Of a stretch of DNA of 19,576 nucleotides, positions 16,269 through 19,576 are shown piece by piece. The stretch comes from Escherichia coli. GTDB taxonomy: Bacteria > Pseudomonadota > Gammaproteobacteria > Enterobacterales > Enterobacteriaceae. Under the pieces are notes generated by a model. That model searched no databases and was not told where the DNA came from. It worked only from the letters and a program-made list of their open reading frames with translations. The translations under genes were made by a program, and so were the position numbers. Position 1 is the first letter of the stretch; the number at the start of each line of letters is the position of its first letter. The stretch lies in NCBI RefSeq assembly GCF_003334765.1, contig NZ_QOWT01000051.1; one strand, given 5' to 3'.

Positions 16269-17012
16269 TTTTTCATATCTGCGTCTGACGTTCTCCGGTG
16301 TATTCCTCCTTCTGTTCCTGCGTTCTCATTACCTGCCAGCAGGATGCTGACAGAACACATAAATGCGTATTGCCGGAGCCTGAAATAAATCCTGATTTTT
16401 AAAGAACATCACCCGTTGAGTTTCGGGAGCCGCGGTTTTGACGTTTCGCGGGAACCTGCTGCTGTATTCCCTGTGGTATGAACTTCACCCGTTTGAGAAC
16501 CTTCGCCGCAAGGGGCATCACTGCCACGGCCTGACGCACCTGTCCTGGGCAGAACGCAAAATTTTTTACCGGTTCTTGGGTAAAAAATTTTGTGGGCTGT
16601 TCATTTACCCTGGACAGTCAGTGCGGCAGGTTGTGGCTGTCTATGCCCCCGGCGACAGGGACTCATACGGGTGTGTGGCACCCGGCAGGCAATGAGCAGG
16701 GACCCGCTGCAACGACGTGAAGCGCGGTTTGCGAAACGGCGTTGCGCCTTACATCCCGGCGTCTTTTTGCCGGGATGCCAGGAGCGCAGGCCACGGCGCG
16801 ACAGAGGCGACGCGACCGGAACGATCGCTGCAAGCCAGGGTTTCGCGTCAGGGATGGAAGCCCGCCAGGGCGGAGACAGCTTCGCTGGCTCCGTTCACGA
16901 CAGCCCGCCCCGCCAGGGGGACGCCCGGGAAAGCCATAAACAGGAGAGGAACGGAAAGAAGAAGAGGAAGAAGAGGAAGAGTAAGCGCACCGTGAAGGAC
17001 GTGGAGTAAAAA

Positions 17013-18575
17013 TTAGTTTACAGATAGAGTGACGTTCCAGGGCAACAACTCTTTCACGCGGTTGGCAGGCCAGGTGTTGATGACACTGATCACGTGGCGT
17101 AGCCACGTTTCCGGCTCGATTCCGTTAAGTTTGCAGCTACCGATCAGGCTGTACATCACTGCCGCACTCTCGCCTCCTCCATCAGAGCCGAAGAACATGT
17201 AGTTACGCCGCCCCAGTGCAACTACCCGGAGGGCGTTTTCACACAGGTTATTGTCGATCTCCACCCAGCCATTGCGGCAGTATTCGTTCAGGGCGTCCCA
17301 TTGCTTCAGCAGATAGGTGAACGCTTTCGCCGTATCCGAGTGACGCGACAGCGTGCTCATCTGCCCCTGGAGCCACTCATACAACGACTGCATTAGCGGT
17401 ACCGTTCTGGCTTTTCTGACCGCCAGTCGCTCTTCTGCCGGACTGCCGCAGATCTCAGACTCGATAGCGTACAGTGCCCCGATACGACGGAGCGCTTCTC
17501 CCGTTACTGTCGTTGGATGGCGGACATGTACATCGTGGATCTTGCGTCGGGCATGTGCCATACAAGCCGCTTCGGTTACCTGACCGCTTTCGTAAAGAGC
17601 ATTGTAACCCGCATATGCATCGGCCTGCAGGATACCTCTGTAGTCCGCCAGATGTTGCTGCGGGTGGATACCTTTGCGGTCGGGAGAGTATGAGAACCAC
17701 ACCGCTGCCGGCATGGTCGAACCGGCGTTGCGATCGTCACGAACATAGACCCACAGCCGTCCTGTACGGGTTTTACCCTGACCCGGCTCCAGTACATTTA
17801 CCGGCGTGTCATCGGCATGCACTTTACCCGGCATCAGCACATAGTGCTTCAGTTCATCATACAGCGGGCGAAGCTGCTCTCCCATGATGTCAACCCAGCG
17901 CCCCATCGTATTGCGGTGCAGCTCCACGCCCTGGCGGGCATAGATTTCCGACTGACGGTACAGCGGCAGATGCTCGGCGAACTTCGCCATGATTATGCGG
18001 GCCAGCAGAGCCGGACTGGCGTAACTGCACTCGATGGGTTTTGGTGGCTGCGGAGCCTGAACTATACAGTCGCACCGGCTGCAGGCCAGTTTTGGACGAA
18101 CCGTTTCGATTACCCTGAACGCGGTGTTGATGATATCCAGTTGTTCAGAGATGCTTTCTCCCAGCGATTTCAGTTTGCCGCTGCAGACGGGGCATTCGGT
18201 TTCTGCCGGGGAGATAACCTGCCTGCCACGGGGAAGTGTTGCCGGAAGTGCTTTGCGGACGGGAGAGGCTGATGTTTTCGGCGCTGTCTATCCGGCCATT
18301 GAAGTGAGTTGCAACTACGCCTCACCAAGCCTGTTCTGGAGCTCGGTTATACGCGTTTCTGCCCGCGCGATCTTCTTTTCTATCTTCTCGCGACTTTTCT
18401 CGCTGCTGCGACCGAACAACATTCTCTGCAGTTTAGCGACCAGCGCTCTGAGTGAGCTGATCTCGCGGGCATAGCCGGTTATTTCACCAGACAGACGGAC
18501 GATAACAGCCTGCTGTGCGATCAGCAGGGCCTTCAGTTGCTCGATGTCGTCGGGGAGTGTGTTGTTCATTCCCAT
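17013..18575 (-). pseudogene. tnpC: IS66-family transposase TnpC with two in-frame amber codons
   Basis: The N-terminal leucine-zipper part (MGMNNTLPDDIEQLKALL..., track ORF 18315..18575) and the zinc-finger/catalytic part ([13 protein letters not shown]...[16 protein letters not shown]..., ORF 17013..17990) are in the same frame, separated by TAG codons at about 18315-18317 and 18288-18290. If those were CAG the product would be one full-length TnpC of about 520 aa. Confidence 0.8.
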
Positions 18576-18588
18576 GTTTTATCACGGG

Positions 18589-18936
18589 TTATATCCGGAT
18601 GCCAGGCAGTTCTGTCCGTTTGGGATGTTGCCACGCGATCCCCTCCAGTAGCATGGATAATAGAGCTGGCGTCAGGTGCACTTTCCCTTCCCGGGTTACC
18701 GGCCAGACGAAGCGGCCCCGTTCCAGGCGTTTGGCGAACAGGCATAACCCGTCACGATCGGCCCACAGTATTTTCACCATTTTGCCATTGCGGCCCCGGA
18801 AGACAAAGATATGCCCGGAGAACGGGTCATCTTTCAGCGTGTTCTGCACCTTCGAAGCCAGGCCGTTGAAGCCACAACGCATATCTGTGATGCCAGCGAT
18901 GATCCAGATTCTGGTACCGGTCGGCAGCGTTATCAT
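18589..18936 (-). CDS. tnpB: IS66-family TnpB (Orf2)
   Basis: 115-aa ORF MITLPTGTRIWIIAGITDMRCGFNGLASKVQNTLKDDPFSGHIFVFRGRNGKMVKILWADRDGLCLF..., the classic IS66 Orf2 signature. Confidence 0.9.
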   Translation of the reverse strand: MITLPTGTRIWIIAGITDMRCGFNGLASKVQNTLKDDPFSGHIFVFRGRNGKMVKILWADRDGLCLFAKRLERGRFVWPVTREGKVHLTPALLSMLLEGIAWQHPKRTELPGIRI

Positions 18937-19339
18937 CGGATCCCCCCTTTCATTTCGCGAATGAGCACCCTAAGAAGTTCCGGAGTGAGGGGGGCAAACA
19001 GTTTTACCACACCTGATTTAAGATGCAGCTCACACTGTGGTGAGTCTACGGTAGTGTCATTCTGGCTTTCATCAGACTTGTTTCGCCAGAAAGGATTTGT
19101 CACCGGTTTGACGGGGTCAGGAGTCTCAGTGATTGCCACCGGAACGGCCTGGCATTCCTGGAGATCCTCATCATTCAGTAAGCCCTCTTCATACAGTCTT
19201 TTCCAGTTAAACAACAGATTGTCATTAATATTGTGCTCTCTGGCGATCCGTGCAACGACTGCACCAGGCTGTAATGCCTGTTTTACCAGCCTGATTTTAA
19301 ATTCACGACTGTAGGAGGTTCGTCGTTCTTTTCGCCATG
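18933..19339 (-). CDS. tnpA: IS66-family TnpA (Orf1), 5' end uncertain and possibly frameshifted
   Basis: Frame of track ORF 18933..19214 extends upstream through RKERRTSYSREFKIRLVKQALQPGAVVARIAREHNINDNLLFNWKRLYEEG (HTH typical of IS66 Orf1) without a canonical start. An ATG at about 19337-19339 gives MAK in the +1 frame, and removing one A from the adjacent A4 run would yield MAKERRTSYSREFK. Confidence 0.5.
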
Positions 19340-19576
19340 TGCTTTCGCTGATTTGAGGATCATCAGGTAATTCCTTCTTTCTATTGGCATAAAGTATGGC
19401 ATCGAGTTGGGCGACTGAAAGTGATTCAGGTAATGGCCAGGTAATACCGGAGGCATTAAATCGTTGAAAGAGATTATGAATGGTGGAATGACTGAGACCT
19501 AAGGAAGGTGCGAATAAGCGGGGAAATACTTCTCGGCTGACTCAGTCATTTCATTTCTTCATGTTTGAGCCGATTT

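Follow-up and report, generated by a model that had tools for sequence, protein, structure and literature searches.

An IS66-family element with amber codons in tnpC and an IS5-split tnpA on an IncF-type Escherichia coli plasmid: a probable non-autonomous, decaying copy

Organization of the IS66-family element

The window, a stretch of E. coli DNA of 19,576 nucleotides (contig NZ_QOWT01000051.1), contains an IS66-family insertion sequence that runs on the minus strand from position 16981 to the window end and carries its genes in the order tnpA-tnpB-tnpC. As the original prediction had proposed, the element starts exactly at 16981, which is the first base of the terminal GTAAGCG... repeat. The right terminal inverted repeat occupies positions 16981..17002 (GTAAGCGCACCGTGAAGGACGT on the plus strand), and the right end at 16981 reads GTAAGCGCACCG. 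Imperfect terminal inverted repeats opening with GTAAGCG are a hallmark of the IS66 family in ISfinder descriptions. Of the 22 positions of the right repeat, 17 agree with the left repeat of the uninterrupted copy carried by plasmid pE1246_1, and each of the two repeats opens with GTAAGCGC. Homology to independent copies of the element elsewhere begins at 16972 in most cases and at 16981 in one; the earlier start apparently reflects chance similarity in the copies' own flanks. The uninterrupted form of the element measures 2,710 bp and spans 72930-75639 of pE1246_1 (NZ_CP025574.1). The element probably belongs to the IS679 group, whose length of about 2.7 kb resembles this value. The left repeat (...GGAGCGCTTAC) is expected past an IS5-type element at the window end and thus off the window; the left end and the first 36 codons of tnpA likewise lie off the window, and their presence past the IS5-type element is assumed.

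The coding content agrees with a three-ORF organization described for the IS66 family (PMC6778807). Three parts are recognizable, namely the transposase gene tnpC and, upstream of it, the accessory genes tnpB and tnpA, the latter two arranged in a translational-coupling geometry in which the ATG of tnpB overlaps the stop codon of tnpA (ATGA at 18936-18933). The tnpB gene (18589..18936, minus strand; IS66 accessory protein) is an intact ORF of 115 codons that scores 121.7 bits with NCBIfam IS66_TnpB and differs from the pE1246_1 copy by one synonymous change. Of tnpA, the window holds the 3' part (18933..19503, minus strand), corresponding to codons 37-225 of 225 and the stop codon. The NCBIfam model IS66_access_TnpA gives 293.5 bits, a score obtained on the protein of a full-length relative. 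The tnpC gene, which encodes the DDE transposase, was delimited at 17013..18575 on the minus strand from a translation of 18575>17010 together with NCBIfam, Pfam and RefSeq, and it is a pseudogene. It comprises 520 codons when counted from the ATG at 18575 and 518 codons from the conserved RefSeq start, the ATG at 18569. When two internal stop codons are read through, all four IS66-type domains are detected by Pfam: LZ_Tnp_IS66 at residues 42-116, zf-IS66 at 125-169, DDE_Tnp_IS66 at 184-469 and DDE_Tnp_IS66_C at 476-513. The read-through protein also reaches 450 bits with NCBIfam transpos_IS66 (cutoff 180), a model that begins only at residue 103.

The closest comparison is provided by intact IS66-family elements of EHEC and EPEC, found on plasmids and chromosomes and encoding a long TnpA of 225 aa. 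An example is the copy in NZ_CP027318.1 with TnpC WP_001066422.1, TnpB WP_000631725.1 and TnpA WP_001341423.1, which shares with the window's element the gene order, the ATGA overlap, the GTAAGCGC termini and nearly the same length (2,709 bp versus 2,710 bp). Nucleotide identity to this type of relative amounts to 98.6% in tnpB and 98.3% in tnpC and to only 79% in tnpA, and the element is therefore a mosaic. The intact relative is a multi-copy element present at up to 16 places per genome. Unlike it, the copy in the window carries two amber codons, a nested IS5-type element and no 8-bp target duplication.

Lesions in tnpC and tnpA

Translation of tnpC in a single frame confirmed the two in-frame TAG codons reported in the original prediction, 27 nt apart on the minus strand. 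The first (18315-18317) is codon 87 and corresponds to CAG (Gln) in the intact relative, and the second (18288-18290) is codon 96 and corresponds to GAG (Glu); numbered from the RefSeq start at 18569, they are codons 85 and 94. Compared with the single-ORF, 518-aa TnpC of the 98%-identical intact copy, both are point mutations, CAG>TAG and GAG>TAG, and hundreds of relatives have CAG and GAG at these two positions. Both stops fall within the leucine-zipper domain at the N-terminus and precede the zinc finger as well as the DDE catalytic domain, and the amber at codon 87 would end TnpC translation after 86 residues. Past codon 96, the tnpC translation offers no in-frame ATG, GTG or TTG before the zinc finger; the next in-frame start after the stops is Met195, inside the DDE domain. 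With no start available between the stops and the zinc finger, no transposase can be made, and the reading frame shows that neither the zinc-finger domain nor the DDE catalytic domain of this TnpC can be produced. RefSeq flags tnpC as a pseudogene in identical copies.

Relative to the intact copy encoding WP_001066422.1 (L002), tnpC exhibits 27 nucleotide differences and no indels. These divide into 14 synonymous and 13 non-synonymous changes, the two stops being included in the latter, a count that pools changes predating inactivation with later ones and is no guide to selection. When 13-27 unselected substitutions were simulated in intact tnpC, 8-25% of trials yielded two or more stops, so that two stops are unremarkable for a dead gene. 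Two stops within 27 nt were obtained in 0.3-1.5% of trials, and the TAG pair belongs to a group of five substitutions that cluster locally. The closeness of the pair is mildly unusual and leaves a small opening for an origin that was non-neutral or a single event.

The lesion in tnpA is of a different kind from the one originally predicted. A probable frameshift had been suggested for this gene and was rejected by alignment with intact tnpA: positions 18933-19502 form a single open frame that matches the intact 678-nt tnpA of pE1246_1 without a difference, and the frame stays open and identical up to base 19503. A further sequence search gave 100% identity for the stretch 19380-19502. Within the tnpA frame, the first ATG, GTG or TTG before the stop is a TTG at 19214, and a 57-aa, ATG-started ORF at 19283-19456 overlaps the gene out of frame. 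The homology to tnpA breaks at 19503/19504, exactly where the end of an IS5-family element starts, and the intact tnpA of pE1246_1 begins 107 nt further on. The 5' end of the gene is thereby lost inside the predicted N-terminal helix-turn-helix.

Of the IS5-family element, 73 nt (GGAAGGTGCGAATAAGC...; 19504..19576) lie inside the window and the remainder continues beyond it. They include the IS5-family terminal inverted repeat GGAAGGTGCGAA... and are identical at 72 of 73 positions to the end of a 1195-bp element of the ISKpn26 type, annotated as "IS5-like element ISKpn26 family transposase." E. coli genomes contain this end at thousands of sites. Directly before it lies CTAA (19500..19503), the IS5-family target site, which is single in uninterrupted tnpA; a second copy would fall beyond the window, and the reference ISKpn26 copy has CTAA on both flanks. 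In terms of the alignment, these features show tnpA to be split at codon 36/37 by a later IS5-family insertion at CTAA. Neither PLSDB nor the complete E. coli genomes contain a record with this exact IS5/tnpA junction, and the junction consequently rests on one assembly. Han and colleagues are said to have found for IS679 in 2001 that loss of tnpA alone abolishes transposition.

Distribution and genomic context of the double-TAG allele

The double-TAG allele was found in 26 complete E. coli plasmids, in a single copy in every one of them. Over the 126 nt that surround the two TAGs, 25 records are 100% identical; a further record has both TAGs along with two other differences. Among the records searched, no one-TAG intermediate was found and the allele was never seen elsewhere than at its one locus. 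The left junction is common to all 26 records and the right junction to 20; the remaining six are pAA-type plasmids in which the right end was lost by deletion, as seen in pFORC69. Being single-copy and sharing the left junction in 26/26, the allele is identical by descent and goes back to one old insertion. The same defective copy is present, with RefSeq annotation, in pE1246_1 (NZ_CP025574.1), in pFORC69 and other pAA-type plasmids, and in pDEC15A-1; copies of the pE1246_1 type share the locus, the two TAGs, about 100% identity and the pseudogene flag. Further insertions distinguish these copies from each other, with ISEc11 in tnpB accompanying the right-end deletion of pFORC69 and ISEc62 in tnpC of pDEC15A-1, and the IS5-type insertion in tnpA is restricted to the window's copy.

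On its right side, the element borders a purine-rich (GAA/GAG)n tract (16941..16980, plus strand), a repeat of the F-type leading region. The original prediction placed the insertion immediately after this repeat. Comparison with plasmid F requires a correction, since there the tract runs about 30 nt further, within a gene for a hypothetical protein of 118 aa, and the end of the element hence lies inside it. The IS66 end shortens the tract and truncates the hypothetical gene on the plus strand, which in pE1246_1 is labeled by RefSeq as "incomplete; missing C-terminus." On the other side, the neighbor is a parR/stbB-like gene represented by its final 11 codons. Only the left flank is shared with the IS-free plasmid pSARB26_03, and only the right-flank repeat with F; a query with a chimera of right and left flank identified no plasmid in which the two flanks are adjacent.

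In sister plasmids that carry the uninterrupted element, it is flanked by ...GAGGAAGA and AAACCAGA..., and comparison of these flanks revealed no 8-bp target duplication at the double-TAG copy, whereas the intact relative L002 exhibits the duplication GCGGAACC. IS66 elements duplicate 8 bp of their target, and flanks that do not match point to recombination between copies (PMC6778807). The missing duplication indicates a rearrangement after insertion rather than membership in another family. An IS-associated deletion or a recombination between two IS copies would account for both the missing duplication and the position of the locus.

Taken together, the region is very probably a non-autonomous, decaying IS66-family copy on an IncF-type E. 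coli plasmid, characterized by amber codons in tnpC and an IS5-split tnpA. The immobilized, decaying copy originally predicted is borne out by the derived TAGs, the single locus in 26 plasmids and the absence of a target duplication, and no observation of this analysis speaks against it. The plasmid lineages have since gained different nested IS, namely the IS5-type element here, ISEc11 in tnpB and ISEc62 in tnpC. In this model, the copy would have evolved neutrally after the first nonsense mutation and would be unable to transpose by itself; at most, an intact relative might mobilize it in trans, provided that the left end off the window is intact. The present roles of the copy may be passive, as a portable block of homology and as a harmless landing site for other IS.

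Alternative readings and implications

The original prediction had allowed, at lower probability, for a host suppressor tRNA that reads both UAGs and yields a full-length TnpC from a regulated, active element. Of the stop codons, UAG is suppressed most frequently in E. coli, and with a supE-type suppressor, which inserts glutamine, codon 87 would again yield its original Gln; the frame is otherwise intact and free of indels. Nevertheless, the yield would be very low with two suppressions needed in succession, no tRNA gene is present within the window, and CAG and GAG stand at these positions in the many relatives. In addition, tnpA is destroyed independently by the IS5-type insertion, tnpB or tnpC is split by other IS in sister copies, and the allele has never moved from its one locus in the 26 records, all of which makes suppression extremely unlikely. 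Just as improbable is a natural two-ORF architecture, in which the leucine-zipper part would be a separate protein and the break functional. An independent leucine-zipper ORF does exist in some IS66 elements of Bacilli (PMC3971601), where the coiled-coil part is likewise set apart from the catalytic part, and the NCBIfam transposase model starts past the stops. In these Firmicutes elements, however, the split is conserved and located at a domain boundary, while here two point nonsense mutations, instead of a single stop, lie in the middle of the leucine-zipper domain and are followed by no restart codon, so that the zinc finger would be lost with the next start being Met195. A natural break in reference TnpC, named in the original prediction as an observation that would contradict it, does not apply to this lineage because close relatives encode one continuous 518-aa ORF; the two-ORF reading is effectively refuted by these intact relatives.

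Errors of sequencing or assembly might also have produced the TAGs, the IS5 junction or both, considering that IS ends are classic sites of misassembly and that the IS5/tnpA junction is unique to the window. Yet the region around the TAGs is identical in 25 independently sequenced complete plasmids, with both TAGs also in the 26th, and the IS5 junction is exact to the base, the canonical CTAA of the uninterrupted gene being followed directly by a complete terminal repeat; an artefact therefore has hardly any probability. A further reading assumes a domesticated fragment, in which the 86-aa N-terminal TnpC peptide and/or the intact tnpB would be kept to inhibit IS66 relatives or to serve the plasmid. 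The 86-codon ORF (18315-18575) is intact in 26/26 plasmids, the defective copy persists on diverse plasmids of IncF and pAA type, and beta-clamp-binding motifs have been described beside the leucine zipper of IS66 TnpC (PMC3971601). The peptide comprises a coiled coil and, at residues 50-54, a Q-x-x-L-F sequence that by eye resembles a putative beta-clamp-binding motif. Against domestication, the pAA lineage has a split tnpB and the window a split tnpA, meaning that no gene set is consistently kept, and the copies are almost identical, so that recent common descent would explain their persistence without selection. Domestication is accordingly judged very unlikely, and there is a similarly slight chance that the peptide, possibly together with tnpB, might be expressed and inhibit related IS66-family elements in trans, in a dominant-negative manner. 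If true, such a peptide would explain both the spacing of the TAGs at 27 nt within a cluster of five substitutions and the persistence of the copy on many plasmids.

The preferred reading of a decaying copy is ordinary IS decay, and tnpC is already flagged as a pseudogene in RefSeq. For annotation, the region is to be described as an IS66-family pseudo-element with two internal stops in tnpC and an IS5-split tnpA, neither frameshifted nor recoded, and the importance beyond this correct annotation is little. With its fixed junctions, the shared double-amber allele lends itself to tracing the lineage of a group of IncF and pAA-type E. coli plasmids, and the nested insertions of IS5-type, ISEc11 and ISEc62 elements mark sub-lineages. 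The case illustrates that dead IS copies gather further IS and sit at rearrangement points of the plasmid backbone.

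The IS66-family module and its amber codons

A three-gene IS66-family module runs on the minus strand between 19503 and 16981, and the terminal repeat, GTAAGCGCACCG..., begins at base 16981. The 3' part of tnpA is an open frame from 19502 down to a stop at 18933, followed by an intact 115-codon tnpB (18589-18936), whose ATG overlaps the tnpA stop (ATGA), and by tnpC (18575>17010), which translates as one frame of 520 codons in which codons 87 and 96 are TAG. Judged by its protein models, which agree, the element belongs to the IS66 family: NCBIfam scores were 450 bits for transpos_IS66, 122 bits for IS66_TnpB and, scored on the full-length TnpA of a relative, 293 bits for IS66_access_TnpA, and Pfam places LZ_Tnp_IS66 (42-116), zf-IS66 (125-169), DDE_Tnp_IS66 (184-469) and a C-terminal element (476-513) on TnpC. 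Its length of 2.7 kb and long type of TnpA make the IS679 group a candidate assignment.

The original prediction of two TAGs in a single tnpC frame, 27 nt apart at 18315-18317 and 18288-18290, proved exact on translation. With a query starting at window position 16900, a megablast search against plasmids recovered eight records that have the window's right flank and are 99.6-100% identical to it over query bases 1-2,603 (16900-19502). Numerous independent copies, some of them annotated with an intact tnpC, also matched, with an overall identity of about 94%. Alignment with the tnpC of an intact EHEC-type relative (L002, from NZ_CP027318.1; TnpC WP_001066422.1, 518 aa) revealed zero indels and 27 substitutions, of which 14 are synonymous; the 13 non-synonymous ones include CAG to TAG (Gln) and GAG to TAG (Glu). 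As tnpC of the relatives is one continuous ORF with CAG and GAG at these sites, the TAGs are derived point mutations. Sequencing error is implausible because the same TAGs occur in 26 independent assemblies, and tnpC of identical copies already carries a pseudogene flag in RefSeq. Both stops fall within the leucine-zipper domain, before the zinc finger and the catalytic domain, and the next in-frame start is Met195 (ATG at 17990), within the DDE domain. The TnpC product is an 86-residue fragment and the transposase therefore cannot be made.

When 13-27 unselected substitutions were placed in an intact tnpC by simulation, 8-25% of trials gave two or more stops and 0.3-1.5% gave two stops within 27 nt. 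Five substitutions, the two TAGs and three others, cluster at tnpC nt 253-344 (window 18232-18323, 92 nt). These three others are the sole tnpC changes in the window's lineage since its split from the copy on the sister plasmid pDEC15A-1, the remaining 1,465 nt being unchanged. The cluster is mildly odd and may reflect a poorly constrained zipper/zinc-finger linker or a local mutational event; it needs no functional explanation. Compared to L002, tnpB and tnpC are 98.6% and 98.3% identical, whereas tnpA shows only 79% nucleotide identity (172/225 aa) and the left end 88%, suggesting that IS66-family lineages recombined close to the tnpA/tnpB boundary.

Interruption of tnpA by an IS5-family element

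A frameshift had been proposed for tnpA, but none is present: the window equals the tnpA of L001, an uninterrupted sister copy on plasmid pE1246_1 (NZ_CP025574.1), base for base up to 19503 and then enters an IS5-type end (GGAAGGTGCGAATAAGCGGGGAAAT...). The last 73 nt of the window share 72 positions with the end of an element of 1,195 bp that is annotated as "IS5-like element ISKpn26 family transposase," whose reference copy has CTAA on both flanks. CTAA also directly precedes the IS5-type end (19500-19503) and is present once in uninterrupted tnpA; this abutment identifies an IS5-family insertion at a canonical target. In L001, tnpA comprises 678 nt (225 codons) and starts 107 nt past window position 19503. 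The IS5-family element would thus lie between codons 37-225 and the off-window remainder, codons 1-36 plus the left inverted repeat, with the cut falling within the predicted N-terminal helix-turn-helix of TnpA, between ...AIALQ and LGLSHSTIHNLF... This split explains why the tnpA frame has no start codon. A TGA in the tnpA frame lies inside the IS5 end, the first ATG/GTG/TTG afterwards is a TTG at 19214, and an ATG-started ORF at 19283-19456 is an overlap out of the tnpA frame. No record in PLSDB or among the complete E. coli genomes contains the IS5/tnpA junction.

Ends, flanks and plasmid context

In the uninterrupted copy, 2,710 bp long, 17 of 22 terminal positions are shared between the two ends. 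L002 (2,709 bp) is flanked by the 8-bp duplication GCGGAACC, and 8 bp is the target-duplication size reported for IS66 (PMC6778807). Such a duplication is absent in the window's lineage, where ...GAGGAAGA closes the right flank and AAACCAGA... opens the left one; no PLSDB plasmid has the two flanks adjacent, and no relative sharing both was found. Mismatched flanks can be left by recombination between two IS66 copies or by IS-associated deletion (PMC6778807), and one of these processes probably underlies those seen here. Two independent insertions have nine identical bases, AACCAGACG, almost adjacent to their left inverted repeats, at an offset of 1 nt in L001 (6792-6800) and of 5 nt in the left flank of L002, which could be coincidence or target preference.

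The left flank opens with the 3'-terminal 11 codons of a parR/stbB-like gene, and a hypothetical gene of 993 nt comes next; pSARB26_03, a plasmid free of the IS, has complete parM and stbB-like genes ahead of this position. At the right IS end a hypothetical gene is cut off. The right flank is one of a family of repeats from the F-type leading region, and a purine (GAA/GAG)n tract indeed adjoins the element, although the IS end lies inside this tract rather than just after it; in plasmid F the tract runs about 30 nt further. Window 16407-16874 is one of these roughly 450-bp repeats, with 96% and 91% identity to two other copies in pE1246_1, both of which overlap a small "frameshifted SSB" pseudo-CDS, and the adjacent stretch (16690-16980) matches a plasmid F site just upstream of ssb. 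The repeat may be a candidate single-strand promoter/initiation element.

Elsewhere in the window, a 460-nt internal traI fragment (12491-12950) is joined to a truncated traX (~12495) on one side and to leading-region ParB-like/DUF905/ssb genes (from 12947) on the other. Compared with pE1246_1, almost all of the tra operon, oriT, psiA/psiB and hok/mok are absent, which probably makes the plasmid a deletion derivative incapable of conjugation. Also lacking, at 13884-13887, are 1,089 bp that lie between a methyltransferase gene and ssb in pE1246_1 and contain a copy of a leading-region repeat as well as small hypothetical genes. A 393-aa ORF (4460-5641, minus strand) with only a Pfam DUF3656 (collagenase/U32 C-terminal) domain and no NCBIfam hit has no annotation in pRHB25-C13_3, a plasmid with 98.9% identity, and may be a truncated U32-peptidase remnant. 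Adjoining the IncFII replicon, window 239-4355 carries a PLP-dependent aminotransferase-family gene, a cydA/cydB-like cytochrome bd-type oxidase pair and a DUF2474 ORF (annotation transferred from near-identical plasmids).

Descent of the double-amber allele

A search of 5,426 complete E. coli genomes with 126 nt around both TAGs returned 25 records with 100% identity, all plasmids with one copy each; pDEC15A-1 has both TAGs and two other differences. In 633 further records the copies reached at most 96.8%, with CAG and GAG in those examined, and no single-TAG intermediate was seen among the matches. A left-junction query (left repeat plus flank) returned exactly the same 26 records. The right-junction query returned 20 of them, the other six being pAA-type plasmids; pFORC69, the sole one of these examined, has a deletion from within tnpC into the neighboring methyltransferase gene. 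Single-copy records and a shared left junction lead to the conclusion that the double-amber copy represents one insertion passed on with the plasmid backbone; it was never found at a second site. The sister lineages show additional decay of independent origin, with ISEc11 within tnpB of pFORC69 and ISEc62 (IS21-family, 5-bp duplication) within tnpC of pDEC15A-1. The IS5-type insertion in tnpA is private to the window.

Amber suppression could in principle restore full-length TnpC, but two suppression events would be required, the window holds no tRNA gene, tnpA is broken independently of tnpC and the double-amber allele has never moved. A TnpC naturally encoded by two ORFs, known from some Bacilli (PMC3971601), would make the break an architectural feature; here, however, it lies mid-domain without a restart codon and is not found in close active relatives. 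That the 86-aa ORF is a retained regulatory fragment is improbable: it is intact in 26 of 26 plasmids, but recent descent leaves these copies near-identical. With derived TAGs at a single locus in 26 plasmids, the main reading of an immobilized, decaying copy is borne out, the frameshift excepted. All features are those of standard IS decay, as the RefSeq annotation already states, and the private IS5-type insertion is the sole new item.
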